A stretch of 64,000 nt of DNA from an uncultured Planctomycetota bacterium (GCA_963849325.1 CAWKHF010000007.1:64001-128000), one strand, 5' to 3'. Positions 8,578-62,672 are shown, counted from the first letter of the stretch. Translations and numbers: made by a program. Notes: generated by a model not told the origin, from the sequence alone.

Positions 8578-9915
8578 TCAAGAGTAGATCAGGATCACGC
8601 GCACGTCCATGACATTGGTCTGTGTCAGGCCCGTCTTGAGCAGGTCTCCCATCGCGTCAAAGAAGGTATAGGCGTCGTGGCGCTCCAGGCAGTCGGCCGG
8701 GTGCAACCCCTGCCGCGCTGCCCGAAGGAGGGTCGTCTCGTCGGCGATGGCGCCGGCGGCGTCGGTGGGTCCGTCCTCGCCGTCGGTGCCGCCGCTGAGG
8801 ACGACAACGTCTCGCAGTCCGGCCGCGCCGAGGTGGAGTGCGGCGGCGAGCACGAATTCCTGATTGCGACCGCCGCGGCCGTGCGATTGGCTCAGCGTCA
8901 CGGTCGTCTCGCCGCCCGACAGCACGCACACCGGCGGAGGCATCGGCTGGCCATCGACGCGGATACTGCGCACGATGCCGGCCAGCACGATCGCGGCCTG
9001 GCGCGTCTCGCCTTCGAGGAACGAACCGAGGTTGAGCACGGCATAGCCCAGCGCTTCCGCCTGTCGCCGGGCGGCGGCAAGGGCGCGGCTGTTGTTGCCG
9101 AGGATGAGGTTGTGTACAGACGAGGGCAGCGTCTTGGGCGTCTCCGCGATGGCACCGTCCTGGCCGCGTTCGAGATGGGCGAGCACGGCGGGCGGCACGC
9201 GCGGCCGCAGGGCGTAGCGATCGAGGACGGCCAGGGCGTCGGCGAACGTGGTGGGGTCGGCGGCGGTCGGGCCGGAGGCGATGACGTCGAGCGGATCGCC
9301 GATCACGTCGGAGATAATCAGGCTGAACAGGGGGCGTGCGCCGAACGCCTGGGCGAGCCGGCCGCCCTTGAAGGCGGACAGGTGTTTGCGGACGCAGTTC
9401 ATCTCGTTGATGGTGGCGCCGCAGGCGTGCAGCAGCGCGGTGACGTGCTGCTTGTCTGCCAGGGTGATGCCGGCGACGGGTGCCGGCAGCAGGGCCGAGC
9501 CGCCGCCGGAGAGCAGGCACAGACCGACGTCGCATGGCCCGGCACGGCCGACGAGATCGAGCATGGCCTGGACGCCGGCCACGCCCTCGGCGGTCGGTTG
9601 ATTGGTGCCGGCCGGTCGGGCGGCGTGCAGACGGATCGCTTGCAGCGGCCGCACCGTCTCGGCGGGCACGTTGACGACGCCGGCGAGGCGGTCGAGTCGA
9701 TCCGCCAAGGCCGCCTCGACGCCGGCGGCCATCGCCGCGCCGGCCTTGCCTCCTCCGACGACCAGAAGGCGTCCCGGTCCCGCCAGCGCCGCGGCCAGAG
9801 GAGGTGACGGTTGCCTCAAGGCGGTGCGTACCAACTCGAAGGGATTGGCAGCGGCGACAGCTGCCTGCCAGATGGCGCAGGCGTGATCGCGCAGGAGTGT
9901 GGGGGAATCCGTCAT
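8578..9915 (-). CDS. Glycerate 2-kinase (DUF4147/MOFRL, TtuD-like)
   Basis: GGGKAGAAMA, LLSGGGSAL, RKHLSAFKGGRLA, SGGETTV, GRGGRNQE, GTDGEDGPT, TNVMD. Confidence 0.95.
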   Translation of the reverse strand: MTDSPTLLRDHACAIWQAAVAAANPFELVRTALRQPSPPLAAALAGPGRLLVVGGGKAGAAMAAGVEAALADRLDRLAGVVNVPAETVRPLQAIRLHAARPAGTNQPTAEGVAGVQAMLDLVGRAGPCDVGLCLLSGGGSALLPAPVAGITLADKQHVTALLHACGATINEMNCVRKHLSAFKGGRLAQAFGARPLFSLIISDVIGDPLDVIASGPTAADPTTFADALAVLDRYALRPRVPPAVLAHLERGQDGAIAETPKTLPSSVHNLILGNNSRALAAARRQAEALGYAVLNLGSFLEGETRQAAIVLAGIVRSIRVDGQPMPPPVCVLSGGETTVTLSQSHGRGGRNQEFVLAAALHLGAAGLRDVVVLSGGTDGEDGPTDAAGAIADETTLLRAARQGLHPADCLERHDAYTFFDAMGDLLKTGLTQTNVMDVRVILIYS

Positions 9916-10092
9916 CGGGACACCTTGCCTCGCCTATTTCGGTTCGTTTTATCCATTTTCACATATTCGCGTCGGCACCCATTTGAGCTTGTTCGCATCT
10001 TATTCATCCGGTTAGAATCCCGCTCCTCGAACGCATCCCCGCGTCGAGTTGGCCGCAAACCCGGTTTCTCGCATGTTAAAAGGAGGTCGCCC

Positions 10093-10842
10093 ATTCGCCA
10101 TTACCTCGTCCTCGCCCTGGTCCTCACCGTCACCCTTGGAACCAGGCAAGCTCGCGCCGATCTGGTCACCTACAACATGACCGGCACCATTGAGGGTTCC
10201 GTCGTCCCCATCTCGCCCACAGGAGGCTACGCTCCTTCGCCGGTTGCCCTAGGCGACCACATGACCTGGACGCTGCAATATGATCCCAACACACCGGCCA
10301 CACTCAACAATGTTCCCTTGAGCAGTTCTTACGCTCCGGCGAGCCCTGTCATTTCCAATCTCGTCGATCAGACCACTGGCTTCCACTTCAGCACACCTTC
10401 CGCCACGAGCCTTCAATCTGGCTTGACCCTGTTCAACGCCCCACAAGGCGGCTTCCTGTCTGCCGGTGACACGCAAATGAGTTCCAATCAAGGTCCCCTC
10501 TACCAGGCCTTGCTCTCGCTGCTGGGACCGAGCAACGGTTTTTCCACCCTGGACCTGTCCCAATTACCTCTGGACCAGGCAGGCATCCAGATGACCGCCC
10601 CATACGGCGCCGCCAGCATCCTCAGCTATTACGGCATTCCAGCCGGCGACGGAGGAGTCCAGTTGAGCTTCACGGTCCAGGTGGCGTCGCTGTCTGCGGT
10701 CTCGACTCCGGAACCGGGGTCGCTCACGCTGTTCGTCCTCGGCGCCGTTGGGCTGGTCGCACGCCGCATCCATTCCCGGCTCCGGCGCGGGGGAGGTTTC
10801 CCGTTTGAGCGGGCGGTCGAACGGAACGCAAATGTACGGTAG
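10093..10842 (+). CDS. PEP-CTERM sorting-domain surface protein 1 (probable ATT start)
   Basis: Signal peptide ...RQARA/DLVTYNM; C-terminal TPEPGSLTLFVLGAVGLVARR; AGGAGGT-5nt-ATT at 10093. Confidence 0.85.
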   Translation: MRHYLVLALVLTVTLGTRQARADLVTYNMTGTIEGSVVPISPTGGYAPSPVALGDHMTWTLQYDPNTPATLNNVPLSSSYAPASPVISNLVDQTTGFHFSTPSATSLQSGLTLFNAPQGGFLSAGDTQMSSNQGPLYQALLSLLGPSNGFSTLDLSQLPLDQAGIQMTAPYGAASILSYYGIPAGDGGVQLSFTVQVASLSAVSTPEPGSLTLFVLGAVGLVARRIHSRLRRGGGFPFERAVERNANVR

Positions 10843-10868
10843 TTCGTCCGTTTCCCAGGAGGTCCGTC

Positions 10869-11562
10869 ATTCGTCCGTTCATCGCCATCGCGCTGACCCT
10901 CGCGGTCATGGGCGGAGCCAGGGAAGCTCACGCCGATCTGGTCACCTACAACATGACCGGCACCGTCACCAGTGCCGGTAACTCCGACTTCGGCACCATC
11001 GTGAACGCCGGTGGCAGCTTCGTCCCCGGTAGCGTCAACATTGGCGACCACATCTCCTGGACGCTGCAATATGACCGCTCGTCGCCCTGGGGGAACCTTT
11101 TCTACACGCCGACGGCCGCCGTCCTCTACAACGTCGTCGATCGAACGACCGGCGTGGCCCTGTACTGCGCCGCATCAGTCGAGTGACTTCCAATCCGCGA
11201 ATGTGATCCTGTTGACGGGTCCGCCATCCGGTACGGTGTTCGGTGCCAGCAGCGGCTGGGGATCGGCCAACCCATTACCCGGCTCGCCAATGACCGACAC
11301 TTCCCTGCTTCTGATGAAAAACCCAGACCCTGTGCCGCCGGCGAACCTGATGAACTTCCAGCCGGACAACTTCCCGTTCGACACCGGCACCTTCAGCTAC
11401 TCCTCCGGCGCCCCGGGGTTTGGAGGCACGGAATTCACCGCGCAGGTGGATCGGACGATCCTTCTGGCCTCGACGGCTCCCGAGCCGGGGTCGCTTACGC
11501 TGTTCCTCCTGGGAGCCATCGGGCTGGCCGCGCGCCGCCTTCGCCGCTGCTTCGGGGAGTGA
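10869..11562 (+). CDS. PEP-CTERM surface protein 2, paralog of protein 1 (probable ATT start; frameshift near 11165)
   Basis: Signal ...REAHA/DLVTYNMTGT, shared GDHxxWTLQYD, C-terminal APEPGSLTLFLLGAIGLAARR. Confidence 0.85.
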
Positions 11563-11688
11563 GAGACCACTTCGCGGCGCCCCGCCCCTTTGGACCTTCT
11601 CGGCCCCGGCCGCTTGCCTTTGACGGGACTTGATGACACATTAGTCCGTGATCGTTGTTACGGAGTGTGTCTTCAAGGAGCCGTGCCG

Positions 11689-12700
11689 ATGGCCAGCAAA
11701 CCGAAGGTCTTCGTGACGCGCCGCATCCCCGCCGCCGGACTCGATCGCATCCGCCAGCAGTGCGACGCCGAAGTCTGGCCCGAGCAGATGCCGCCGCCCT
11801 ACGACCTGATCCGCCGGAAGCTCGCCGACTGTGACGGCCTGGTGTCGCTCCTCACCGACCGCATCGACGCGGCCCTGCTGGACGCGGCGCCGCGCCTCAA
11901 GGTGGTGAGCAATTACGCCGTCGGTTTCAACAACATCGACGTGGCGGCGGCGACGGCACGCGGCATCGCCGTCGGCAACACGCCCGGCGTGCTGACCGAC
12001 GCCACCGCCGACATGGCCTTCTGTCTGCTGATCGCGGCGGCGCGGCGACTGGTCGACGGTCATCACTACGCCGGCTCCGGCCAGTGGAAGACGTGGGAGC
12101 CGCTCGGCCATCTCGGCCAGGATCTCGATCGGCCGCACGCTCGGCATCATCGGCATGGGGCGCATCGGCTACGCCCTGGCCCGTCGCTGTCATTTCGGCT
12201 GGGACATGCAGATCCTCTATCACGACACCTACCGCAACGAGAAGGCCGAGACGGAGCTGGACGCCCGGCAAGTCGATCTCGACACGCTGCTGGGCCAGGC
12301 GGATTTCGTCTCGGTCCACACCGACCTCAACGACAAGACACGCGGCCTGTTCAACCGGGAGCAGTTTCGCAAGATGAAGCCGACGGCGGTGTTCGTGAAC
12401 ACGGCGCGCGGCCCGATTGTCGTCGAGAAGGACCTGATCGCGGCGCTGAAGACGGGCGTGATCTTCGCGGCCGGTCTGGACGTGACTGACCCGGAGCCGC
12501 CGGAAGTGGAGAATGAATTGCTACGTCTGCCGAACCTGATCGTGGCGCCGCACATCGCCAGCGCCACAGTCGGCACACGCAACGCGATGGCCGAGATTTG
12601 CGCCAACAACCTGCTGGCGGGACTGAGCGGGCAACCGTTGCCGGCGCCGGTGAACCCGGAGGTCGAGGGCAAGCGTCGGACAGGCGAACGGCCGGCATAA
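11689..12700 (+). CDS. D-glycerate dehydrogenase / glyoxylate-hydroxypyruvate reductase (frameshift near 12128)
   Basis: NYAVGFNNID, NTPGVLT, GMGRIG, VNTARG, GLDVTDPEP, PHIASAT. Confidence 0.92.
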
Positions 12701-45430: not shown

Positions 45431-48400
45431 ATGATGACGGGCATGTCTACTCCATCATCCAATCCTTCGCGTCCCGCGCTGGAGTATCGTATCCTCGGCG
45501 CGATGGTGGGAGTGCTGGGGGCCGCCTTGCTGCTGGCGCTGGGGAGCCGAGGCGCCGAGACGCCCAGCAAACTCACCGCCGAGAAAGTACGGCAACTCCA
45601 GGCGAAATACCAGGAAGAACGCGCCGCCGCCGACAAGGAAGGGCTGACGACAAAGTTCTCTCCCGAGTGGTACGAGAACGCCGCCAAACTGGCGAAGCAG
45701 GGCGACGAGGCGCTGACGGCCGGCCGGCTCGTCGAGGCGTCCGAGAGCTTTCACCGAGCCGCGTTGGAGTCTGCCGGGTCTGCCGCCGCACCTGCCGGAG
45801 CACGTCGGCCGTATCTTCGGCGACGGCCGGCTGCGCTTTACCGGCCCGGTGCTGGCCCTGGCCTACAGCCCGGATGGCCGGCGCCTGGTCACCGCCGCCG
45901 GCGATGCCGTCGTCCGCGTCTGGGACACCGACAACGGCCGCGAGGTCTGCCAGTATAACGGCCACAACGACGAGGTCTATGCCGTCGCCTTCCACCCGGA
46001 CGGCAAGTTGATCGCCTCGGCCGACAAGAGCAACGCCGAGATCAAACTGTGGAACGCCGACACCGGCAAGCCCGTCAAGGGCTTGCAGGGGTACAAGGAG
46101 TTCGTGACCAGTATCGCCTTCAGTCCCGACAGGCAATTGCTGGCCGCCGGCGGCGACAAGGACGTGCGCGTCTACGACATGGCCACGGGAGCCACCAAGC
46201 ATGTTCTGCGCGGCCACACTCAGCTGGTCCGCAGCGTGGCCTTCAGCCCGGACGGCAAATCGCTCGTATCGGCCGGCGCCGACAAGATCGTCCGTTGCTG
46301 GGACACGACGACGTGGACGGATCGCTTCGCCACGCCGCCTTTCCGCGGCGATCTCTTCGGCATCGCCTTCCATCCGGACAGCCAGACGTTTGCCGTCGCC
46401 ACCACCGACCCCAATGGGGCCAAGCTGCTGTCGGCGGTGGACGGCAGTGAACGGCAGAGCTTCGAGGGCCACAGCAAAGAAGTCATTTCCCTGGCCTTCA
46501 GCAAGGATGGCAAGCGCCTGGCCACCGGCAGCAACGACCAGGGCATTCGTCTGTGGGACGTCGCTACCGGCCAGACCCTGCGCACGCTCCAGGGCGGACA
46601 CAGCGCGGGCGTGACGTGCCTGGCCTTCAGCCCGGACGGCCGAACGCTGGCCTCCGGCAGCACGGACCAGACGGTGCGGCTGTGGGAGGTCGGCAGTGAC
46701 GAGCAGGCGCGCGAGCTGGCCGGCCACCAGGGCGCGGTCTGGTCCGCCCTGTTCAGCCCGGATGGCCGGCACATCGTCTCGGCGGGGGCCGATAAGCTGG
46801 TCCGCATCTGGGAGACGCTCACCGGCAAGGAAGAGCGCGTCCTCAAGGGCCATCATTCGCCGGTAACGGCGGCGGTGTACAGCCCGGATGGCAAATTCAT
46901 TGTCTCGTGCAGCGGCGACAAGCTGCTCAAACTGTGGGACGCCGCGACCGGCCAGGAAGTGCGCACCTTCACCGGCCACACCGCTGCCGTCACCAGCGCC
47001 GCCTTCAGCCCCGACGGCAAACAACTCGTCTCCGGGGCGGCGGATCGTCTCGTCAAGGTTTGGGAGGTCGAGACCGGCAAGGAGCTGCACTCGCTGCCGG
47101 GCCACGCCTCGGTCATCAGCGCCGTGGCCTGGGGCCGCGACGGCAAGCGCCTCGCCTCGGCCGGCGGCGACAACACAATCCGGCTATGGGACGCCGGCAC
47201 GATGAAGGAGGAGCGCACGCTGCTGGGCCACGGCGGCGCCGTCAGCTCGATCGCCTTCAGCCCGGACGGGCGGCAGCTGGCCTCGTGCGGCGGCGATCAG
47301 CGCATCCTGCTGTGGAACGTGGACGGCTCCGGTTCGCCGCGGGCCTTCCTCGGCCACAGCAGCGTCATCAGCTCGGTGGCCTTCAGCCCCAACGGCAAGC
47401 TGCTGGCCTCCGGCGGCGGCGATCAGGTCGTCAAGCTGTGGGACGTGCAGGCCGGCATCGAGCTGCACTCCTACCAGGGCCACAAAAACTGGATCAGCTC
47501 GGTCGCTTTTAGCCCGGACGGCCACTACCTCGTCTCGGGCAGCGTCGATCGGACGATCAAGCTGTGGGAGTTGGCCGGCCAGGCCGGCGGCGCCGCCTTC
47601 GGCCACACCAAGGAGGTCCGTGCCCTCGCGGTCAGTCCCGACGGCAAGCTGCTCGCCTCGGGCGGTGCCGACCAGAGCGTGCGCTTGTGGGAGCTGGCGA
47701 CCGGCCGCGAGCTGTTCGTGCTGGAAGGACGAATAGCGGGACAAGTCAAGGAGATCACGGCCCTGGCCTTCACGCCGGACAGCAAAATGCTGGTGTCCGC
47801 CGACGAGGACAACACACTCAAGTTCTGGAACACGGCAACAGGTAACGAAGTCCGCGCCCTCCGCAACGAGAGTCCGTCGCCCCTGGGCATCCCCGTCCTG
47901 ACGGTGACGCCCGACGGCAAACACCTGATTGCCTGGGTCGCCACCACGGAGGTCAGCACCTACACGCTGGCCGACGGCAAGCAGACCGCCGCCTTCGCCG
48001 TCGGCGACAGCAGCTCGAAGATCAACAGTCTGTCGTTCAGCGCCGACGGCACCATCGCCGCCCTGGGCGGAACCGACGGCGTTGTTCGCCTCTGGGACGT
48101 CGTCAAGAAGCAGCGCCTCGGCGATGACCTGAAAGCCCACGACAAGGAGGTCATGGACCTGTCGCTGACGCCGGACAAGAAGATGCTCGTGACGGCCGAC
48201 CGCGCCGGCGAGGTGAAGGTGTGGGACCTGGGCAAGCGGCAGGTCGTGCGCACGATCGCCGCGCATAAACAGAAAATCATCGCCGTGGCCATGAGCCCGG
48301 ACGGCTCGCGCTTCGCCACGGCGGCGGCGGACAACGTCGTCAAGCTGTGGGACCGAGCGACCGGCAAGGAGCTGCGGCAATGGGACTTGCACGTCCCGGT

Positions 48401-48515
48401 GCTGACCAACAGCGACAAGGCCCCGTTCGTCCGCGCCTTGCTGTTCGCACCCGATGGCAAGCACCTGGCGACCGGCAACGCCGATACGACGCTGTATTTG
48501 CTCGATTGTCCGTAG
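45431..48515 (+). CDS. Secreted WD40-repeat protein, about 20 repeats (frameshift near 45765)
   Basis: Signal-like N-terminus, then regular GH...FSPDG...WD repeats over ~890 aa. Confidence 0.92.
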
Positions 48516-49537: not shown

Positions 49538-51515
49538 GTGGCCCCCGCGCGCTGGCGTCCGGTGATTGACTATCTGCGCATGATCGCGCGACGTCCGCAG
49601 CCGGAGGAGCGCGGCGACGCCTGGCTGCTGGCTCGCTTCGTCGCCGACCGCGACGAGTCGGCGTTCGCCGCCCTGGTGCATCGGCACGGCCCGATGGTAT
49701 TCGCCACCTGTCGCTGTATCCTGGGCGACGTTCACGATGCCGAGGACTGCTTGCAAGCCGTCTTCCTCGTTCTGGCGCAAGGCCGCCTCGCTCCGCAATC
49801 CCGATCGTCTGGCCAACTGGTTGTACGGCGTCGCCCGCCGCACTGCTGCCAAGGCGCGCGTGCGCAGCGTCCGGCGGCGAAGGCACGAAATGCCTCTCGT
49901 GGATGTTCCCGGCCAAGGGAGCGACGATCTCATCTGGCGTGAGTTGCGGCCGGTCCTCGACGAGGAAATCGCGCGTCTACCCGCTCGCTATCGGCCGGCA
50001 GTGGTCCTGTGCTATCTCGAAGGAGCGAGCAACGCCGAGGCGGCGCGGCGGCTCGGCTGGCCGCGCGGCACGGTAGCGACGCGCCTGGCCTGGGCGCGGC
50101 AGCGGCTGCGCTCCCGACTGGAGTGGCGCGGCATCACCCTGCCGGCCGGCGCCCTGACGGCGCTTCTGGCACAGGAGACGGCCGAGGCCGCTATCTCGGG
50201 GAGACTGGCGAAAACGACCGTCGAGGCGTCTCTGCGCTTCGCCGTGGGACAGGGAATGACCGCCGCCACGACGTCGGCGGTGATGCTGGCGAAAGGAGTG
50301 CTCACGAGCATGACCATGACCAAGGTGCAGTTCGCCGTCCTGATGGTGCTGACCGCCAGCGTGGTCGGCGTCGGTACGGGCTGGCTGGTGCGCTCTCTGT
50401 CGAGCGGCGAGCGACCGCAGGCTGTCGCCCCGCCCTCCGTCGCACGAGCCGAACCCGACCGCAACGAGATCCTGAAAGAGGAGATCGCGGTCCTGCAACG
50501 TGAGCTGCGAGAGCTGAAGAAGTCGCCGGCCGCGAAACCGACGCCGCCGGAAGCGAAAGAGACAGCGGCCGCCGACTCGCTGCCTCTCCTGTATCAAGGA
50601 AAGCCTGCCAGCGCCTGGTTGGTGACGCTCCGCGACCGCGATCCGGATTACCGCGTCAAGGGCATTAAGGCGCTCGATTCTCTCGCGCAGGTGGACCCGT
50701 CGTTGATCCCGGCAATTATGGGATCTTTGAAAGATAACGACCCAGAAGTCCGCACGGCGGCGGTCAATGCCCTCGGCGACATCGGTTCGCCGGCCGGTGA
50801 AGCCGTGCCCCTCATCCTGCGGAGCGGCTGTTCCATCCAGAACATCCTGAATGCCCTGGACGAGATCGATCCCAAGGGTCAGCGGGCCATGCCAGCCGCG
50901 TTGGCTGTCTTGAAGGAGACGGAAGCGCGACCACGACAGACAGCCGCTTTCGTCCTGCTGCACTTCGACAAGTCCAAGATGCGTCTTGGCATGACCGGCT
51001 TTGTCGATGCCTTCCAAGCGGAGGACGAGAATTTCTTCTGGTATGATCGAACGACGAAGGCAAGCGAGAGTGTCACGGTGCATCTCATCGCCGCGTGGGC
51101 GCTGGAGCAGATTGGGTCCCAGGCGCGCGAAGCCGTGCCGGCCTTGGTGCGAGCGCTCCATTCTCCCCTGCATAACTCGGATGCCGTCAGAGCGTGTAGT
51201 TCCGCTTTGACAAGCGTGGACCCGGAAGGCAAGGAAGCGATTCCGTTGTTGATAAAAGAATTGGCTTCCATGAAACAACCTCTCGATGATTCCGATAGAG
51301 GAGAGCGGACTTGTGTGATCCGCGCTCTGGCCTTGTATGGTCCAAAGGCCAAGGCGGCGATTCCGACTCTGCGAGAAATCGTCAAGAAAATCGAATCCTC
51401 GAAACACCCCAATTTCGCAGAAGGACTGCATTTTGTCGCTATCGACGCCCTTAACAAGATCGATCCCAAGAAGCCGCCAACTAGCAAATCGAACAAGGCG
51501 GCGAAAGAGAATTAG
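49538..51515 (+). CDS. ECF sigma factor with TM segment and C-terminal HEAT repeats (frameshift near 49775)
   Basis: AFAALVHRHGPMV, DAED.LQAVFLVL, WLYGVA, LPARYR..VVLCYLEG, GTVATRL; TM; repeats EAVPAL/EAIPLL/AAIPTL. Confidence 0.9.
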
Positions 51516-53827: not shown

Positions 53828-54253
53828 CTACGGCCCTTGTCTGTATTTCCGGGCGATTGCTAATATCACATGGATGATGATGAGGAGGAGAGTGCCGCCC
53901 GCGAACGACCACAGACCGGCCTGTATCGTCCTACGGGTTCCGGTGAGAAAGCCAGCGATAAAACATGCGGCCCCGATGGCCTGTAGTAGGCAGGCAATGT
54001 AGAATCCGAATTCAGAGGCAAGCGGCTTCTGTTTATGTCTCCATTTGATTACTAAGATCATGGAGCTGAGAATCATGAGAAGAACGGCGCCGGTGAATAA
54101 GGGAACGCACAACCATACCCCAACAATAACGAGCTGTCTAAGGCCAGCGAAAAAGCCAATGATCTCACACAGCAATCCTAGAAGTCCCAGTATTGCTGCA
54201 ACCCGGACGCAAAAATCGATAGAAAGCAGCTTGCCTGACATTCGGACAATCAC
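53828..54253 (-). CDS. Small 4-TM membrane protein, possible immunity protein
   Basis: Low-GC ORF, four hydrophobic segments, two similar halves. Confidence 0.6.
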   Translation of the reverse strand: MIVRMSGKLLSIDFCVRVAAILGLLGLLCEIIGFFAGLRQLVIVGVWLCVPLFTGAVLLMILSSMILVIKWRHKQKPLASEFGFYIACLLQAIGAACFIAGFLTGTRRTIQAGLWSFAGGTLLLIIIHVILAIARKYRQGP

Positions 54254-54283
54254 TGCCTATGGCTGTGACGCAGCCCAATATCT

Positions 54284-54627
54284 CTATGTTCGCTCATCCT
54301 GGTGTAGTTCACCATCACTGGTATCAGGAGAGGGTGCATCATATAGCTCGTATCGCACGCCTTCTACTTCACCGGAGGCGATTGGCTTCGCACTGGTTGG
54401 TTGATACTCTGCGAGGATCTGCGAAACAGTGCGGTTATTCATTCTCTCGTAGCGCCTTCAATTCCATACCATCCAACATAGTTCCGTAGGATGGTACGAA
54501 GTTGCTTACTCAATACTGGCGGCAATGCCTGAATGGCTTTCGTCAAAGAGATGGACACTTCCTGAAGGCTTGAGCCTGAAATCAATCTTCCCCCATGATC
54601 TGTCACGGCATTTCTCCGCAATAACAC
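54284..54627 (-). CDS. Putative immunity gene(s) behind the deaminase cassette: 62-aa ORF (54439-54627) ATGA-coupled to 52-aa ORF (54284-54442)
   Basis: GTG starts 1 nt after the deaminase stop; second ORF MNNRTVSQILAEYQP...; may be one frameshifted gene. Confidence 0.4.
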
Positions 54628-54748
54628 GTTATGGCTTCACGAGAAGCACTCCATTCCTCCATGCCCATTGGCTTCCAGCGCTATCAATATACCATATATC
54701 CATTTGGAATTGCTGAGATGCCCACTGCATAAGACTTTGGCAATCTCT

Positions 54749-56280
54749 CTGTACTTTCCGTGATTTTCTCATAGTTCGCCATAAGCGACAACTTCGGGAG
54801 ATAATTCTTGGTGAGGTCGAGCAACATGGCAGCGACGGGCGGGTGGACGATAACCGGCTCCCCGGACACGATGAGGGGTGACTACCGTCCCTCGTCTCGC
54901 CAAGGAGCCGGCCATGCCATTGTCGCAACTGCCCACCTCGTTGTCCGCCTGGCTGTCCGACATCACCGCTGCCCTCGATCGCCGCTCCGCCCCGCGACTG
55001 CTCCTGCTGCTGGTCGGGGCCCTGTTCGCCAAAGGACGCCGTACCGTCATCTCCTGGTTCCACGCCGCCGGCATCACCACCGACTTCCGGCCCGCCTACA
55101 ACGCCTTGGGGGCTGCTGGCCGCCGCGTCGATGCCCTGAGCTACCGCCTGCTTGGCATCGCCCTCAAGCCGCTGATGCGTCGCATCCCCGGCGACCGTCT
55201 GCTGTTCGCCATCGACGATACGCCGACGGCGCGCTACGGACCCTGCGTGCAGGGCGCCGGCATCCACCACAACCCCAGCCCCGGCCCCGCCGGCGAAAAG
55301 TTCGTCTACGGTCACGTCTGGGTCAGCCTCGCCTGGTTGGCCCATCACCCGGCCTGGCACACGCTGGCCCTGCCGTTGCGTGCCCTGTTGTACGTCCGCG
55401 CCAAGGACGTGCCGGCGTTGGCCGAGAACTACCCCTGGCCGTTCCGCACCAAGCTGGAACTGGCTGCGGAGTTGGTCCGCTGGTTGACGGTCTGGGTGGG
55501 CGGTCTGGGCCGGACCTTGTGGCTGGCGGTCGATGGGGCCTACGCCAAGCGACCGTTTTTGCAGCCGGTGATGGCGTTGGGAGTGGTGGTCGTCAGCCGG
55601 CTGCGCAAGGACGCTCACCTGATGACCCTGCCACCGACCCGACGTCGGCACGGACAGCGTGGACCGTTGCCGACCTACGGCAAGGAGCGGATCGACCTGG
55701 CCAAGCGTGCCGGACAGCAGCGGGGCTGGCGGCGGCTGGAGTGCGTGCAGTACGGAGAGCGGGTGGTCAAGCAGATCAAGACGTTCCAGGCGACCTGGCG
55801 GCCGGCGGGCGGCTGCATCTGCGTGGTGCTCGTGCGTGAGGACGACGGCTGGCTGGCCTACTTCTGCACGGACCCGGAGGCGACGGCGACGCAGGTGCTG
55901 GAAGCGATGGCCGACCGAGGTGCGATCGAGCAGATGTTCAAGGATGTCAAGGAGGTCTGGGGTGCCGGCCAGCAGCAGGTGCGGAACGTGTACGCCAGCA
56001 TCGGAGCCTGGGCGGTGAACCTGGTGATGTACAGCGTGGTGGAGGCGTGGGCTTGGACGCATGAGGAGGAGGAGTTGGTGGACCGCCGTCGGTCGCCGTG
56101 GGACACCAAGGATCGTCGGCCGTCGCACGCGGACAAGCGGAAGGCGTTGCAACGGCTGATCCTCCGAGAAGAAATCCGCGCGGCTGTCGAGGGTCGGCCC
56201 GAGTCGGAAGGGTTTCGGAACGTGGCTATCCGCCTGCTCGATTTAGCCGCCTGACTGTAAGACTCTCACGGAAAGTACAG
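54749..56280 (+). mobile_element. Complete IS701-like insertion sequence (1532 bp)
   Basis: 15-bp perfect terminal IR CTGTACTTTCCGTGA (54749-54763 / 56266-56280); 7-bp flanking direct repeat AATCTCT (54742-54748, 56281-56287). Confidence 0.92.
54914..56254 (+). CDS. DDE transposase (IS701-like)
   Basis: AIDDTP, VDGAYA, SRLRKDA, RGAIEQMFKDVK motifs; AAGGAG SD. Confidence 0.93.
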   Translation: MPLSQLPTSLSAWLSDITAALDRRSAPRLLLLLVGALFAKGRRTVISWFHAAGITTDFRPAYNALGAAGRRVDALSYRLLGIALKPLMRRIPGDRLLFAIDDTPTARYGPCVQGAGIHHNPSPGPAGEKFVYGHVWVSLAWLAHHPAWHTLALPLRALLYVRAKDVPALAENYPWPFRTKLELAAELVRWLTVWVGGLGRTLWLAVDGAYAKRPFLQPVMALGVVVVSRLRKDAHLMTLPPTRRRHGQRGPLPTYGKERIDLAKRAGQQRGWRRLECVQYGERVVKQIKTFQATWRPAGGCICVVLVREDDGWLAYFCTDPEATATQVLEAMADRGAIEQMFKDVKEVWGAGQQQVRNVYASIGAWAVNLVMYSVVEAWAWTHEEEELVDRRRSPWDTKDRRPSHADKRKALQRLILREEIRAAVEGRPESEGFRNVAIRLLDLAA

Positions 56281-56751
56281 AATCTCTGCAAGCTGGGAGG
56301 ATTCCATCGAAAGTCAGCCTCATTCCCGGCCCCAACTTCCCTGCTTCGGCCAACTCGGCGATAACTTTTCCTTCAGTATGAGTGTACCAGGCTTGTTCAG
56401 GAAATGTCAACTTGGTTCCCTTGGGGAAGGTAACTTCGGCACCACTTATCGCAGTTCCGCCTGCGATTCTCCCACCTCTTGGACCTGTAAATTCCCAATC
56501 AGCCACATGTGGAGTATTCGACGCTCGTCCGAACCAGCCTCCCAGCCCGGCGAAGGCCATCGTCAGTACTGCGGGCGTGAAGTCGCCAATGGTCTTCGCC
56601 GTTCCCTCACTCGCTCCCAGGCCACTTGCAGCCGAATAACCCAGATACGCAATCACCGAGGAGTTGGACTGTCCCGAACCCCAGTCGGCCACTCCCGCGA
56701 TGATCTGATCTACCCCCACCGACATCAAGCCCACACCCGACACTACCGCAT

Positions 56752-57198
56752 TTATGTGGGCGAACTCGCAAAATACATGTCCTCTTCAAACGTGAACGAG
56801 AAGCACCAGCCACCGTCCTTGGCAATCACATATAGCGATTGAGGTTCTGTCAACAATCTTGAGAATACATCAAGAAGTACGCCAAAAGTCATCTCCAAAG
56901 CGACTGAAGTTGTATTGTCTCCAACTACCACACATCTGTCGCTCGAATTAAGCCCAGCGGCCAATTCAAATTGTTCTAGAAATTCTCGGATTTCGCTTTC
57001 CTTATCGGCTATCGGAACGCGAGGGAACCTTGCTGGGCGGAATTGTGTACTCGGAAGTTGTTCCCAGCAGATTCCACTCGCACGCACAGGGAAACGCTGA
57101 CTGAGGAGATTGAACCACGGTTTATCGCTTTCATGGACAGTGATCAGTCCCGCAGCGACTTCACTTGCGAGGCATTCCAGCCAATCTTGCTGGTTCAT
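56752..57198 (-). CDS. Orphan immunity protein, CdiI-like
   Basis: 148 aa, AGGAG SD; FP...I.W, VGDN, PQSLYVI..DGGWCFSFTFEEDMYF pattern resembling CDI immunity proteins. Confidence 0.6.
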   Translation of the reverse strand: MNQQDWLECLASEVAAGLITVHESDKPWFNLLSQRFPVRASGICWEQLPSTQFRPARFPRVPIADKESEIREFLEQFELAAGLNSSDRCVVVGDNTTSVALEMTFGVLLDVFSRLLTEPQSLYVIAKDGGWCFSFTFEEDMYFASSPT

Positions 57199-57260
57199 GA
57201 TGCAACTCTCCTAGGGCTATTGGCCACCAAACAGTTGTCGAAGGACTGCGAGGTAGAAGG

Positions 57261-57500
57261 CGAAAAATAGACAAAAAATGCATAAGATACTTTTAGAGTC
57301 TGTCCCAAAAGCCCCTCTCCCCCGAATCGGGGGAGAGGGGCTTTTGGGACAGACTCTTAATGCATTAGAGGCACTAACAAAAAGGCGAACGGCCGGCGTG
57401 AGCCGGCTGGTTTTGGCCCCCACCAGCCGGCTCACGCCGGCCGTTCGCCCAAAAAGTTAGTGGCTCTTAAAACCATCTTATGCGTTTTCTGCTTTTTACA
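57261..57500. repeat. Nested composite palindrome (outer AT-rich IR enclosing two REP-like hairpins)
   Basis: Outer AAAATGCATAAGAT.../...ATCTTATGCGTTTT; inner perfect hairpins 57293-57359 and 57384-57449. Confidence 0.85.
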
Positions 57501-57521
57501 CCTTTTCTCCTTTCATTGGGA

Positions 57522-57977
57522 CTATTCTTTTTGCATTCGCTTAGTTAGCTCGCCAAGGATTTCTGCGACAAAGTTTGAGTTGGTCGCTAGGCATGTCCTT
57601 TCCCCGGTGTCCGGCTTAGTGAAGAACACGCTTCTTATAGGCACTCTCCGCACAGAATCAATGAGGTCTTGCGTGACATTCGCATCCGGAAGTCTGCCCA
57701 ATAGGTGAAACGCCGTACAGCAGACTGACGCTTCTTCGTGCGCGAGAAAGTGCGGCAAATGTGGACCGAAAATCTGCGGGGAATGAACCATCCCTAGCTC
57801 AAGAGCATATACGAGGTGGTACTTATCGTAATTAGGCAAGTCCGATAACATGCGCCCAAGTGATTCTTCGGAAACCCTTGTCGCTGGATCGTTGAGCAAG
57901 GGCTCCATGTAAGCAGCTAGGGCCGAGTTGGCAAGGGCGACAAACGTATCGTACTCGAAAACAGGTGTTGTGGCCAT
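57522..57977 (-). CDS. Putative cognate immunity protein (151 aa)
   Basis: ATG overlaps the toxin stop (TAATG); low GC; helical/HEAT-like sequence. Confidence 0.7.
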   Translation of the reverse strand: MATTPVFEYDTFVALANSALAAYMEPLLNDPATRVSEESLGRMLSDLPNYDKYHLVYALELGMVHSPQIFGPHLPHFLAHEEASVCCTAFHLLGRLPDANVTQDLIDSVRRVPIRSVFFTKPDTGERTCLATNSNFVAEILGELTKRMQKE

Positions 57978-60900
57978 TAGAATCCCCATCGGATAACTTT
58001 TCCGGTCGAGTCGATTACCACAGCTCCATACGCTTGAACGAAGCCACGACCTGATGCCTGCCAGGCCAGATCGTGAAAACGGGCAACGAACACTCGCCCA
58101 TTTACAACGAGAGCAGGCCAAGGTCCTGCGCCAAGACCTGGAGCAACTATGGCCTGACTTCCCACAATTGCACCGCGAGCACCTAGCGAAGGTGGCGGCG
58201 ACGTTGCGGTCCCCGGTCCCCTCGCCAGTCCTGGGACGTTCGGTGCCGCCGGGGATTGAGGCCCTCTTCCAAACCAATTCCCCAGCCCCGCGAACGCCAT
58301 CGCCAGCACTGCGGGCGTGAAGTCGCCGATGGTCTGCGCCGTACTCTCACTCGCGCCCAGCCCGCTCGCAGCCGAATAGCCCAGGTATTGGTATAACGAA
58401 GGGTTGGGCTGCGATGAACCCCAGTTGGCCACCCCCGCAATTATCTGATCCACCCCCACCGACATCAAGCCCACGCCCAGCGGCACCACCACGCCGCCAC
58501 CGTTGCCCAGCGTCATCACCGCCCCGCCAATCACGTCGGCGATGCCCACGCCGATCTGCAACACGCTGCCGCCATTTGCCAGCAACCATTGCACCCCCGC
58601 ATCACGCAGGAAGTCCGCTTTCAATTGGTCCCACGTCGTCGTACCCGACGCGCCCGGCCACGACAAGTCCTCTTCCGTGTCGATCGATGGCGACGGCTTG
58701 GCGTCACCCCACGGCGATACCGCACCCGACTTCCGATCCGTCGTCGCACCCCAACTCGCCGACCACAAGTACGTCTTGCGACCACCATCCCCCGACGAAG
58801 AATCACCCTTCGCCCAAGAACGATACACACCGATCTGCCAGCTATTGTTCGTGTTGGTGCTCGCGGGCGACACGAACACCCGACTCGTCCAGTTCTCGCT
58901 GCCGGCCCGCTCATCGATGTCGCGCAGGCTCAACTGACGCTGACCGCCCACTGATGTGCCGGCGATGTTCTTGTGATACGACTGGAAACCGTCGGCATAA
59001 TTACGAATGGTAAAGCCGTCGGCCGTGTCCAGGTTGAACACCTTCTGCCGCGACCATTCCGTCTTCTGCTGGTCGCCCTTGCGGTTGAAACTGAAAGTGT
59101 AATTGTCCGGCGTGCCCTTCTCGACCGTGGTTTCGCTGGTGGAGTTGCTCATGTCCAACTTGTGCCGCCACGACGACTCGACTGCCGGATTGCCGTTGTC
59201 GTACTCGTCGCCTTCGTCGTCCTCCGCATCAGCGGCCGGATGGTACGACTGGTCCTTCTCGTGGAACTCGCTGCTGTTGCTGTCGCTGTGATCGATAGAG
59301 AACTGCCGGCCCGTCTCGCTCCAGCCCGAGTCAGTGCTCTTCTGGTTGACGGTCAGTGTATCGTCTACCGAGGACGATGCCTGGGCTTTGTATCTCCAGT
59401 CGCCGGTGCGGCCCTGACCGTCATCGAGCTTGCCGTTGGCGGCCATCGAGCTATTGCCGCTGCTCTGCTGCGTGAAGCCGGTGGTGCGCGTCGCTTCCGC
59501 ATTACCGTCGCTCAACGTGATGGTCACCGTGTCGGTGCTGCTGACCTTGCCGCTGCCGCCGGCGTTGATCTGGGCATGCAAGACATCGTTATCGCGGTCG
59601 ATCTTGCGATTGATTCCATAGTCGGCGGCGGCGCTGTTGTCGGTCCCCATCGTGATGGTGCCGCTGGCTTGATCGCCGCACAACGTCAAGTCCAGGCCCA
59701 GCGAGTCGCCGCTGTGGCTGTGGTTGTGATTGGTATCGTTGACTTGGCCGGTGCCGTCGGACAGCGGCACGCTGCCCTTGACGGTGTTGACTACGTCGGT
59801 ATCGCTGGCGTCGCTGCCACTGGCGGTCAGCGTGCCGTTGGCCGTGCCCGCGTCGTCGTAGGTCAGGTCGGCTGTGGCGTTGCCGCTGGAACTGCTGCTG
59901 GCCGTGGACAGCGACGTTTGCGTGGGCTGGTTGGTCCCCGCTTGCTTCGACCACACAAAGCCGCCGCCGGACTGGTTGCTCTGCGCCTGGTCGTAGCTGC
60001 TGCCGTCGGTCAGCTGGCCGTCGCTATTGACATTGCCCTTGGCCTTGGACGTGCCCGAGGTACTCGCCGTGTTGCTGGCGAAGACGATGGCGCTCCCTTG
60101 CAGCGAGCCATCGGCAGCGGTGAAGTCGGCCTTGTTGAAGCCCGAGGCGGCGCTCTTGCTCTGGTAGCTGCCGCTGTCGTCGATGCTGTTGACCTTGGCC
60201 ACCTGGTCGGACGCGCCGGAGACGACGCCGTCGCTGTGACTACTGCTGTTGGCCTGGGATGAGTACGTGCCCACCGTCTGACCGGCGGGGGCACCACTGC
60301 TGGAGTCGGCACCGACGGCGATGGTGGAGCCGCCGCTGTCGCTCTGCGACATCTTGGCGTCACTGCTGAGCTGCGAACGGTAGGTCTGCTGGTCCTGGGT
60401 GGCCGAACCGTCGGCGTAGGTCTGGTCCAACGTCTGATCGTCGCTGTAGCTGCCGCTGCTGTCGCTCTGGTAGCGGGAGGTGCCGTCGCTGGCGGCATCG
60501 CCGCCGCGGTGGTAGGCATCGGTGACGGCGTAATGGTTGGTCTGGTTGCCGCTATCGTGGTCCTCGCGGCCCTGCGTGCCCGACTGCGACAAGCCGCCGG
60601 CATCGGTTAGGTTGGTGTCCTGGTTACCGTCGTCTTCATCGAAGCTCTGGTTGTCGATGTCCCAACGGAACTGATCGCGGTCGCCACTGGTGGGATCGCT
60701 GGCGCTAGTGCTGTTCTGGAAGTAATAGCGTGAGGCGACCTGATCGTGGTAATCGTTGTGGGCGTTGATGGCCTGCTGGGTGAGGATGCCGAAGGAGCCG
60801 TAGGTGTTCGTGATCGTGCTGTTACTGTTGAGGAAACCACTGGCGGAAGAGAGTTGTAGGTAATGTGTGCCGTCGGCCGGCGCGGCGGACGGGTCGGGAG

Positions 60901-62479
60901 CGGGGCTGTTATCGTCGGTGGGGAAGTTGGCGGCGTTGTCGCTTTGGATCAACTCGCTGTTGTAAGTGCTTCCTTGCCGGGAGGTCGAGACCGCCGTGCC
61001 CGAGCCGTCGGACTCGCTTTCCTCGGACGTGCCATCATCCGGCGTGCTATCAGCATTCGAGGAGGCCGCGTCGGTCCAGGTGGACGACTGGTTGGACCAG
61101 TCGGTGCGACTGGAGTGGTTGACGAACTGATAGCGGCCGCCGTTGTCGGCGGTGTAGCTGCCGGAGGCCTCGAAGGTGATCGACCCGTTCCAGCTGGTGT
61201 GGTCCCACGTCATGTAGCCGAAGCCATAAGTCGGCACGTAGCCGCCGAGCGGCATGCCTTGCATGGCGATGCTGGGATCGATGGGCGTGCTGAAGGGCGT
61301 CACCTCGTTCTCCACATCGAAGTTCCAGCCATAATCGGTGTGCAAGGAGGCGGTGGCGGTGGTAGTTCCGGTCAGCACCCAGGAGGCGCCGGCCGCGGCC
61401 TGATCGCCGGTAGCCGGCGCGATGGCGGCGTCGAGGGTGACGTCGAGGGAGAAGGAACCATCCTTGCTGCCGCCGCTGTAAGTGTAGTGCTGCACATAAT
61501 GGCTGGAGTCGATCTGGATGGCAGGCGTGGCCGTGGCACTGGTGGTGCTATCGTCCGAGGTGGCGGCACTGGTATCGTCGGCCGTGGTATCGGTGGCGTC
61601 GGTGGTGTCTGCCGTCAGGTCCGCCGGCAGGTCGGGGGCGGTGGTGATGTCGGGTGGCGTGTAGTCGGAGTTATCCACGGCGGGGCCGGCGGAGGTATCC
61701 GGTGCATCGCTGGTGTCGGTGCTGCTGCTATCGGGCCCCCAATCATCGTCCGTGCTGGAGTCATCCGGCGGGGTGGTGTCATCGCTGCTGACATCCGTCG
61801 GCAGGATCAGCCCCGGTTGCGGCGACGTGGCGTCGGCGGTGGAGTCGGTCGGGGCGGGATCATTGTTGGGGCTGGCCGATAGGGAGCTGGTCCACCACGA
61901 ACCGTTGGCAAGCAGCGTCTGAGGATCGAGAGGAGCGGCACTGTCATCGGCGGGGGTGGTGCTGGTGTCGCCCGCGGATGGTCCTATGGCTTGCGCCGCG
62001 AGTGCGCCGCTGGCCGGGTCGATCGGGGACGCCAGGTTGGGATCATCGCCCGCGTTATCGGCAGAGGAATCGGACGGCTGTGCGAGTGTATCGGCAGCGG
62101 TCGCGGTCGCGGTCGCTGTCGCCGGCATGGCAGCCATGTACTGGGCGTAAGCGGTGTAGGACGAGAAGGGCAGGTCCGGGGTGGAGGATGCGGCGGCGTC
62201 GGCATTCGGAGTCCCATCCGTGCCGGTGTTATCGGCAGCGGGGGAAGTCGCGGTCGCGGCCGTTGGCGTGGCGGCGTAGAGGTCCGCATAAGTCGTGGTG
62301 CCGGCTGAGGAAGTCGGGTCCGGGGGCAGCCATGCGGCCGACAGCAAGACGCGCTCCTCCAAGCTTTCCAGGCGGAGGTCCACGTACCGAGGTTTGCTCG
62401 ACCGTGGTCTCCGGCTGCGGAGGTGGGAGGTGGAAATATGAGGCAGAAGATGGCTTTTCAGCCAGGAGAAAAAGGTCAT
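57977..62479 (-). CDS. Large LEPR-XLL-type exoprotein, putative polymorphic toxin (1500 aa)
   Basis: N-terminal RRPR...LRLESLEERVLLS motif, D/T/S/A-rich linker, S/D/N/G-rich central region, Gly-rich hydrophobic segment, WFGR, 95-aa C-terminal domain. Confidence 0.85.
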   Translation of the reverse strand: MTFFSWLKSHLLPHISTSHLRSRRPRSSKPRYVDLRLESLEERVLLSAAWLPPDPTSSAGTTTYADLYAATPTAATATSPAADNTGTDGTPNADAAASSTPDLPFSSYTAYAQYMAAMPATATATATAADTLAQPSDSSADNAGDDPNLASPIDPASGALAAQAIGPSAGDTSTTPADDSAAPLDPQTLLANGSWWTSSLSASPNNDPAPTDSTADATSPQPGLILPTDVSSDDTTPPDDSSTDDDWGPDSSSTDTSDAPDTSAGPAVDNSDYTPPDITTAPDLPADLTADTTDATDTTADDTSAATSDDSTTSATATPAIQIDSSHYVQHYTYSGGSKDGSFSLDVTLDAAIAPATGDQAAAGASWVLTGTTTATASLHTDYGWNFDVENEVTPFSTPIDPSIAMQGMPLGGYVPTYGFGYMTWDHTSWNGSITFEASGSYTADNGGRYQFVNHSSRTDWSNQSSTWTDAASSNADSTPDDGTSEESESDGSGTAVSTSRQGSTYNSELIQSDNAANFPTDDNSPAPDPSAAPADGTHYLQLSSASGFLNSNSTITNTYGSFGILTQQAINAHNDYHDQVASRYYFQNSTSASDPTSGDRDQFRWDIDNQSFDEDDGNQDTNLTDAGGLSQSGTQGREDHDSGNQTNHYAVTDAYHRGGDAASDGTSRYQSDSSGSYSDDQTLDQTYADGSATQDQQTYRSQLSSDAKMSQSDSGGSTIAVGADSSSGAPAGQTVGTYSSQANSSSHSDGVVSGASDQVAKVNSIDDSGSYQSKSAASGFNKADFTAADGSLQGSAIVFASNTASTSGTSKAKGNVNSDGQLTDGSSYDQAQSNQSGGGFVWSKQAGTNQPTQTSLSTASSSSSGNATADLTYDDAGTANGTLTASGSDASDTDVVNTVKGSVPLSDGTGQVNDTNHNHSHSGDSLGLDLTLCGDQASGTITMGTDNSAAADYGINRKIDRDNDVLHAQINAGGSGKVSSTDTVTITLSDGNAEATRTTGFTQQSSGNSSMAANGKLDDGQGRTGDWRYKAQASSSVDDTLTVNQKSTDSGWSETGRQFSIDHSDSNSSEFHEKDQSYHPAADAEDDEGDEYDNGNPAVESSWRHKLDMSNSTSETTVEKGTPDNYTFSFNRKGDQQKTEWSRQKVFNLDTADGFTIRNYADGFQSYHKNIAGTSVGGQRQLSLRDIDERAGSENWTSRVFVSPASTNTNNSWQIGVYRSWAKGDSSSGDGGRKTYLWSASWGATTDRKSGAVSPWGDAKPSPSIDTEEDLSWPGASGTTTWDQLKADFLRDAGVQWLLANGGSVLQIGVGIADVIGGAVMTLGNGGGVVVPLGVGLMSVGVDQIIAGVANWGSSQPNPSLYQYLGYSAASGLGASESTAQTIGDFTPAVLAMAFAGLGNWFGRGPQSPAAPNVPGLARGPGTATSPPPSLGARGAIVGSQAIVAPGLGAGPWPALVVNGRVFVARFHDLAWQASGRGFVQAYGAVVIDSTGKVIRWGF

Positions 62480-62672
62480 GGGCGTCCCCGCTCGTCCCAA
62501 GGAAACCTAAAGAAACCGTAATGAAAGTCTTTGGGGAAGAGTCATGTCGAAACCGCATTTGTCAAGGAAGTGAATACGTTTTTAATCTTTAGCCGTTGGT
62601 ATGGTAATTGCGGTGAAACATCGAAAGGGCGCCGGACGTTCGCGCCTTTGTAGGTTCCCTAAGGAGGAATTT

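Follow-up and report, generated by a model that had tools for sequence, protein, structure and literature searches.

Organization of the locus

The window analyzed here is a stretch of 64,000 nucleotides from an uncultured Planctomycetota bacterium (GCA_963849325.1, CAWKHF010000007.1:64001-128000). On its minus strand lies a polymorphic-toxin locus, consisting of a large toxin gene, referred to below as the main gene, and, downstream of it, an orphan cassette in which the segment that precedes the toxin tip is repeated. The main gene (57977..62500) encodes 1507 amino acids from a TTG at 62500; the database copy of the protein (P0002) has 1500, which fits a Met start seven codons after the TTG. 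From the N terminus, the protein is made up of an LESLEERVLLS motif, a low-complexity linker, a stalk of about 950 residues (residues ~325-1278; window 58478-61528), a helical pre-toxin module of about 120 residues (1288-1412; 58265..58639, minus strand), a Pro/Gly linker and the tip. The module ends in the letters WFGR (residues 1409-1412). The 95 residues that remain after WFGR, the main tip (57980..58264, minus strand), divide into a Pro/Gly-rich disordered linker of ~35 residues and a domain of ~60 residues. An open reading frame (ORF) for 151 residues follows (57522..57977, minus strand); its ATG overlaps the stop codon of the toxin (TAATG), and by position only it is the candidate immunity gene. 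It has no Pfam or NCBIfam family.

The stretch that closes the main gene's module, 71 codons long (repeat copy B, 58264..58478, minus strand), recurs in the orphan cassette (repeat copy A, 56524..56738, minus strand). The orphan ORF, at 56743-56243, begins with this 71-codon stub, has no stalk upstream and continues into a tip of its own. Its sole candidate start is the GTG at 56743, and a scan of 56200-58100 for promoters and terminators gave nothing useful. An immunity-like ORF of 148 residues (ORF148; 56752..57198, minus strand) has its stop 13 nt before the orphan homology. Within the orphan tip sits an insertion sequence (IS; 54749..56280, plus strand), and the remainder of the tip is found beyond it.

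The repeated segment

The earlier note on this DNA had described a 213-bp duplication whose similarity stops abruptly after WFGR, had taken the many third-position differences between the copies as an argument against an assembly duplicate, and had named pairwise alignment with dN/dS as a check. All of this is borne out. The duplication is real, with local DNA alignment placing its ends one base further out on each side (56524-56738 and 58264-58478, minus-strand coding), and the peptides that had been read from the two copies match the translations. Aligned in frame and without gaps, the copies are identical at 172 of 213 nt and at 60 of 71 amino acids. The 41 differences are distributed 12/4/25 over codon positions 1/2/3, and the codon changes comprise 19 that are synonymous and 11 that are non-synonymous. 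By NG86, the non-synonymous (dN) and synonymous (dS) rates are 0.107 and 0.707, a dN/dS ratio of 0.15. Identity of the flanks is at chance level (18 of 60 nt past WFGR, 17 of 60 nt before GVGLM). A six-frame search of the genome (8.16 Mb in 14 contigs, 84.7% complete) returned nothing more than copies A and B (E 2e-42 and 3e-33, against E ~0.5 for the next matches). The repeat far exceeds chance.

Sequence change at the junction across the family

The position at which the two copies part company is also the position at which relatives of the main protein cease to resemble it. When the main protein is compared with these relatives by BLAST, 50 of the 58 alignments that enter the module end at residues 1335-1416, and the other eight continue for 6-48 residues, into the Pro/Gly/Ala-rich linker. 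A survey of what follows WFGR with a profile, as the earlier note had suggested, leads to the same place. The module profile, built from four sequences, matched 65 clusters among 1.84 billion representatives at E ≤1e-3, that of the protein itself included; of these, 39 also pass at ≤1e-10, and 7 still do so at ≤1e-30. Of the 64 proteins with a module score >35 bits, whose tails were then compared, 11 have a match that breaks off ahead of profile position 105 and nine carry tails of <60 residues; the 44 tails of ≥60 residues fall into 25 unrelated BLAST groups, 17 of them singletons. The largest group (n = 10) is held together by PT-HINT, a domain present in 10 of the 65 scanned family proteins, in eight of which its Cys lies ≤8 residues from the end of the module. 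Recognized toxin domains among the tails are an XOO_2897 deaminase (E 7e-28) and Ntox10 (E 8e-32), each in one protein; most tails after the module have no Pfam family.

The closest relatives are P0003, a "Hint domain-containing protein" of 1509 residues from a Gemmataceae metagenome-assembled genome, which is 46% identical to the main protein over 1178 residues, and P0004, a fragment of 384 residues. In both, the module end reads ...TPAxLS..F..WGGLTA and is followed directly by the Cys of PT-HINT. Homologs therefore do change sequence at this boundary, as the proposal of a toxin junction demands, and the junction, judged by these comparisons, is a genuine cassette boundary. The further suggestion that WFGR is an analogue of the VENN of CdiA or the DPxG of Rhs stands in part. 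It marks a true domain junction where relatives change; it is not a family-wide motif, the letters WFGR being confined to the two copies of this genome, while the module of the family ends in TPAxLS...WG(G).

Both tips are found elsewhere on other scaffolds. The main tip recurs at the C terminus of P0068, a metagenomic protein of 217 residues with the source name "RHS repeat-associated protein", where it stands behind the end of an Rhs core (...DPSGL), with 64% identity over the final 61 residues. Searched against Pfam at E ≤10, this tip had no match, and its structure is predicted with low confidence by AlphaFold2 (AF2). In P0068, the DPSGL core end is separated from the shared tip by a Gly/Val/Ala-rich hydrophobic stretch, so that a hydrophobic segment precedes a tip of the main type on two unrelated scaffolds. 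Homology of the orphan tip to other proteins begins at ...SPH(V/I)ADWEL..., five residues past WFGR, and recurs on PT-HINT and other scaffolds; because it starts so close to WFGR, the boundary of the orphan tip itself coincides with the junction.

Base composition breaks across the locus as well. GC content at third codon positions is 0.83 in the stalk, 0.76 in the main module, 0.69 in the orphan module and 0.46 in both tips, and overall GC is 0.47-0.53 over the cassette region, against 0.65-0.70 in the surroundings.

Orphan-like forms are present in other members of the family, 11 of the 63 other clusters starting inside the module. At one locus (L018, in the related genome G126), two stalk-less module stubs lie 3 kb apart. 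Both are on the minus strand of contig G126:C85, within 8729-11941, and one of them, an ORF of 306 residues, contains an HExxH motif and has a C terminus that is hydrophobic. Between the stubs are paralogous ORFs of ~220 residues (8960-9634 and 9595-10251) that resemble duplicated immunity genes.

The orphan tip and its disruption

That the downstream copy carries a deaminase, as had been claimed, is supported by its intact homologs. The N-terminal part of the orphan tip (56281..56524, minus strand) is Pput_2613-like, with the letters HTE and PAC RD, the latter being the start of a PxCxxC motif. On its own, this fragment matches PF14427 at E 0.02 and 15 bits, under the cut-off of 25. Three intact homologs (P0073, P0074 and P0075; 76, 73 and 63% identical) are annotated as PF14427, and two of these are situated behind PT-HINT. 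Collinearity with the homologs extends over both fragments: the C-terminal remainder of the tip (54629..54741, minus strand), ~37 codons and a stop, corresponds to their final ~37 residues, and the N-terminal fragment to the preceding part. The orphan tip is thus, by its sequence, probably a deaminase broken by the IS. An apparent extension of its similarity into a protein of another genome, G069, turned out to rest on a weak alignment with gaps and not on a shared tip.

The IS is 1532 bp long and encodes a DDE_5 transposase (54878-56254; Pfam E 3.4e-16). Its terminal inverted repeats begin CTGTACTTTCCGTGA, and the 7-bp target duplications AATCTCT are at 54742-54748 and 56281-56287. The insertion falls in the codon for the second zinc ligand (Cys) of the PxCxxC motif. 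Two more copies in the genome, 83 and 78% identical and with the same ends (C2:191685-193221 and C10:521326-522853), fix the ends of the present copy at 54749 and 56280. The element is thus present in at least three copies, and fragments of it are additionally found on contigs C4 and C13.

Directly after the stop of the deaminase is a small ORF (54439..54627, minus strand; 62 residues from a GTG), a putative cognate immunity gene. It lies in a stretch of low GC (0.47-0.51), and no family was found for it. ORF148 likewise lacks a family in Pfam and NCBIfam. Its scores in the Atlas feature search were 0.90-0.94 to clusters of which some members (10-70%) carry DUF2947, DUF6756, CdiI_ImmP or YxiF, which serves as a lead only. 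In the low-GC stretch past the deaminase remainder is a further ORF of 141 residues (53828-54256, minus strand), with about four hydrophobic helices and no family above threshold.

The helical module

The AF2 model of a construct centered on the module, from an alignment of 34 rows, consists of four helices (construct residues 3-45, 52-75, 82-93 and 98-124) with a predicted local distance difference test (pLDDT) score of 74-96 by block. WFGR occupies residues 122-125 of the construct, and the fourth helix stops at the G of WFG. After the module come a linker of ~50 residues with pLDDT <50 and a small β-rich tip of low confidence. On the Kyte-Doolittle scale (window of 19 residues), values >1.6 are reached in the whole protein solely at windows centered on residues 1322 and 1345-1346, both of which are in the module. 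The hydrophobic helices in which the earlier note had seen a possible membrane-translocation module are accordingly present in the model and, by hydropathy, limited to this part of the protein. The columns conserved in the family are G..D...G, PG.GL..G.DQI..G, S, GL and TPAxLS...WG. The module plausibly acts on membranes, in insertion or translocation of the tip.

No catalogued family describes it. Neither Pfam nor NCBIfam has a model that matches the module, a Pfam scan of the 65 family proteins placed no family over it, and the module sequences alone gave nothing against Pfam at E ≤10 except one meaningless row at E 2.4. DUF4225 covers the module of one relative at 19.7 bits, below the cut-off of 25.9. 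Among solved structures, the module profile found nothing better than E 0.47. The best Foldseek match of the module model has E 0.45, all matches being generic membrane helices, and the best Z of the model in VIA-align is 8.1, which is under the noise level for helical models.

The stalk

The remainder of the protein is equally without a name. Pfam families were not found in the main protein at E ≤1, and its sole NCBIfam match is LEPR-XLL over the LESLEERVLLS motif, at 9.7 bits and under the cut-off of 17. The stalk is homologous to parts of 17 database proteins, mostly metagenomic, with 23-46% identity over up to ~1200 residues. AF2 modeling of residues 325-1412 (16 alignment rows) predicts ~40 antiparallel strands of 15-30 residues, with a mean pLDDT of 75 and many blocks >90; the long antiparallel-strand stalk is thus predicted with high confidence yet has no Pfam model. 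Its composition is 39% Ser, Thr and Asp. The best Foldseek rows for the stalk are teneurin YD shells, the cocoons of Tc toxins and the Rhs core, at E 2e-3 to 0.1 and TM ~0.04. In VIA-align, large outer-membrane barrels rank highest (Z 9-13), with a root-mean-square deviation (rmsd) of 10-29 Å.

Interpretation

The repeat, the domain junction, the polymorphism of the family, the reuse of tips, the compositional break and the disruption by the IS are what is observed at this locus and among its relatives. With a probability that we put at about 0.75, they reflect a large exported toxin whose junction lies at the end of the module, and an orphan cassette that was left or brought by tip exchange and was inactivated by the IS. 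The main gene would encode an exported protein composed of a β-strand stalk, a hydrophobic four-helix module and a variable tip, with the immunity gene next to it. WFGR would be the last turn of the fourth helix, at which the conserved delivery part ends and exchangeable cassettes of tip plus immunity gene begin. The orphan cassette, a module stub joined to a deaminase tip, is most likely what remained from, or arrived with, an exchange of tips that may have proceeded by recombination within the module, and its inactivation by insertion of the IS would have come later.

Swapping of tips by homologous recombination in the module had been put forward in the earlier note, and in the form stated there it is not supported. 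We infer it because recombination between a main rhs gene and an orphan fragment, which activates the orphan toxin, is documented for Rhs (PMC3967940). Such a model fits the present data in that the stub ends exactly at the junction, the divergence of the copies is mostly synonymous, and stubs occur elsewhere.

A number of observations weigh against this interpretation. The copies are 81% identical, and their longest identical runs are 23 and 20 nt, so that recombination between A and B would seldom occur. With the IS inside it, the orphan tip is at present no usable spare, and any fusion formed now would have a defective toxin. L017 and L019, which are related loci, have one module copy each. 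In the relatives with PT-HINT, the module is upstream of this self-cleaving domain and therefore need not travel with the toxin. No structure or sequence match links the module to a known membrane-insertion domain, and its pLDDT is <50 in the stalk run, high confidence being obtained with the module-centered alignment alone. The immunity role of the ORFs at the locus is that of candidates only. Finally, no public run covers the locus: six runs contain ≤0.10 of its sampled words, and coverage by four of them is nearly confined to the IS and the REP-like element described below, with traces in 2 of the other 30 bins.

Some of these points would suit a different explanation, in which the orphan is a decaying relic, its homology is retained without a role, and tips are exchanged by whole-gene transfer or illegitimate recombination. 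Disruption by the IS, the 81% identity with identical runs of ≤23 nt, the single module copies at L017 and L019 and the lack of an evident start signal or promoter for the orphan are all in keeping with decay. The dN/dS of 0.15 is not, as it indicates that the stub diverged under protein-level constraint. The end of the stub exactly at the family-wide junction and the 11 of 63 other clusters that likewise start in the module also weigh against a mere relic, as does the recombinogenic nature of the same architecture in Rhs loci (PMC3967940). We consider this explanation unlikely, if worth keeping in mind.

Comparably improbable, in our estimation, is a purely structural role of the module on the producer side, either as a plug or cargo-holder inside a shell or barrel formed by the stalk or as an anchor in the membrane of the producer. 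The module is found behind other N-terminal parts as well, in short proteins and on stubs that have no stalk, and a composition of 39% Ser, Thr and Asp makes the stalk very polar, unlike a lipid-facing barrel. The ~40 long antiparallel strands predicted for the stalk do recall such a container, and stalk and module occur together in 17 proteins; the position of the module ahead of the cleavage domain in PT-HINT relatives points the same way. Weak Foldseek hits to the YD shell and the Tc/Rhs cocoons (E 2e-3 to 0.1) and the VIA-align scores to large β-barrels (Z 9-13) favor it too; TM-scores of ~0.03-0.11 and an rmsd of 10-29 Å count against it, since they do not settle on one overall fold.

Very little speaks for the module being a divergent form of the pre-toxin domain PT-TG (PF14449), in which case it would already be catalogued. 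A PT-TG cluster appears at rank 15 of the Atlas feature search (score 0.89, a lead only), and PT-TG likewise occurs ahead of PT-HINT and behind Big domains, according to 10.1101/2025.10.01.679605. Direct comparison of PF14449 with the module gave no match at E ≤10, and in a six-frame scan of the genome PF14449 was not found at the locus at E ≤1. Profile-profile comparison by hhalign of 64 module sequences with 16 planctomycete PT-TG regions, to which 13 of the 14 genomes having a match contributed, gave a probability of 0.3% and E 0.2. By these tests the module is not PT-TG. An assembly artefact is very improbable, since the 19% divergence of the copies (41 substitutions) is concentrated at third codon positions, as a collapsed or duplicated assembly would not have it, and each copy has its own flanks and its own tip with independent homologs, next to an IS that has a target-site duplication.

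Returning to the exported toxin with exchangeable tips, a more far-reaching version of it is possible, although we would not bet on it: stalk, module and tip may constitute a separate delivery system, one that has so far turned up chiefly in Gemmataceae-like planctomycetes and in metagenomes and that shows no obvious dependence on type V, VI or VII secretion, and in which a shell or barrel of β-hairpins presents or encloses a membrane-inserting module that carries the tip across. If so, the module would make up a new class among toxin translocation domains and at the same time serve as the landing pad for recombination. The question that the locus raises is how a toxin tip might cross the envelope of the target without a known secretion apparatus.

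Comparison with known systems

Polymorphic toxins with orphan tips are textbook matter in Proteobacteria and Firmicutes. Several features that define such systems in the sense of Zhang et al. (2012) are found here: a conserved part is followed by unrelated C-terminal toxin domains, recognized toxins (XOO_2897 and Ntox10) are among the tails, and a standalone cassette (56243-56743) shares the pre-toxin region. A polymorphic toxin with an orphan cassette is therefore a known arrangement; what is new is the uncatalogued helical junction module together with the β-stalk, in an unusual lineage. The delivery parts of polymorphic toxins are essentially undescribed in Planctomycetota, and neither "polymorphic toxin" nor "PT-HINT" was found in the 12 best-ranked of 327 papers mentioning Gemmataceae, Gemmata or Telmatocola. 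Module and stalk provide an entry point in the search for new toxin and immunity domains, and the deaminase tips may be of interest to those seeking new nucleic-acid deaminases.

The locus resembles Rhs loci, such as rhs of Salmonella, in having a large conserved delivery protein with a variable C-terminal toxin and then a candidate immunity gene, and a downstream orphan fragment that retains a conserved stretch and is without start and export signals; its main tip, moreover, is also found on an Rhs protein. It differs in that no RHS/YD repeats or DPxGL core were found by Pfam or NCBIfam (E ≤1), and in that a hydrophobic helical module, and not the aspartyl-protease core of Rhs, has its end at the junction. 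In CdiA, the boundary between the pre-toxin region (VENN) and the polymorphic tip is sharp, and orphan cdiA-CT/cdiI modules carry a pre-toxin stub. Both properties are shared by the present locus, whereas a two-partner secretion (TPS) domain, filamentous hemagglutinin (FHA) repeats, VENN and an adjacent CdiB are absent from it by Pfam, the ShlB-type genes of the genome being on other contigs.

Toxins with PT-HINT (PF07591; treated in Zhang et al. 2012, PMC3482391) are the nearest full-length counterparts, since the closest relatives share stalk and module and then have PT-HINT and a tip. Among these is a protein of Telmatocola sphagniphila with stalk, module and PT-HINT that bears the NCBI name "polymorphic toxin-type HINT domain-containing protein". 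The main protein itself is without a HINT domain and has the Pro/Gly linker instead, and the module is not part of PF07591. The position ahead of a tip or PT-HINT is common to the module and PT-TG, which is described as loop-like or disordered in 10.1101/2025.10.01.679605; the module is predicted to be four helices.

Hydrophobic helices next to toxin domains have precedents of another kind. Glycine-rich hydrophobic helical hairpins adjoin the toxin domain in prePAAR/TMD effectors of type VI secretion systems (T6SS) and in the T domain of diphtheria toxin. The module likewise resembles the heads of ClyA-family pore formers in being a glycine-rich hydrophobic helical hairpin beside a toxin domain, a likeness for which no homology is shown. 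For the module, the similarity to MakA and to Nhe-L1 in a sequence search (E 4.5-5.6), like that to AhlB (Z 6.7 over 75 residues, 28% identity), is at noise level. Unlike the hydrophobic helical delivery segments of other toxins, which are N-terminal, the module is C-terminal to a β-stalk.

Distribution and genomic context

Matches to the module profile were found in 4 of 151 genomes of the host family, including this one, and in none of 400 other sampled genomes of the phylum. The locus is a polymorphic-toxin locus of a planctomycete of the family Gemmataceae. In other proteins, He_PIG or Big_3_5 repeats precede the module, which also occurs in a protein with the source name RHS repeat-associated, which has one weak RHS-repeat match. 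As for a delivery route, a T6SS sheath gene was not found in the genome at its 84.7% completeness, and the two genes of ShlB type are on contigs C4 and C6, the locus being on C7. No conserved neighbor genes were found between the locus and L012, L017, L018 or L019, and a pattern-based locus search in species genomes returned one locus, L017.

Two other genes in the window, both on the plus strand and with no evident link to the locus, encode a protein of 888 residues made up almost entirely of WD40 repeats (45849-48515) and a fusion of sigma-70 region 4 with HEAT repeats (49737-51515). The interval that separates the first cassette from the orphan region contains palindromic units that resemble repetitive extragenic palindromic (REP) elements (57280..57480, no strand assigned). 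These units are ~66 bp long, have 91 matches in the genome on both strands, and are also present on unrelated metagenome contigs.

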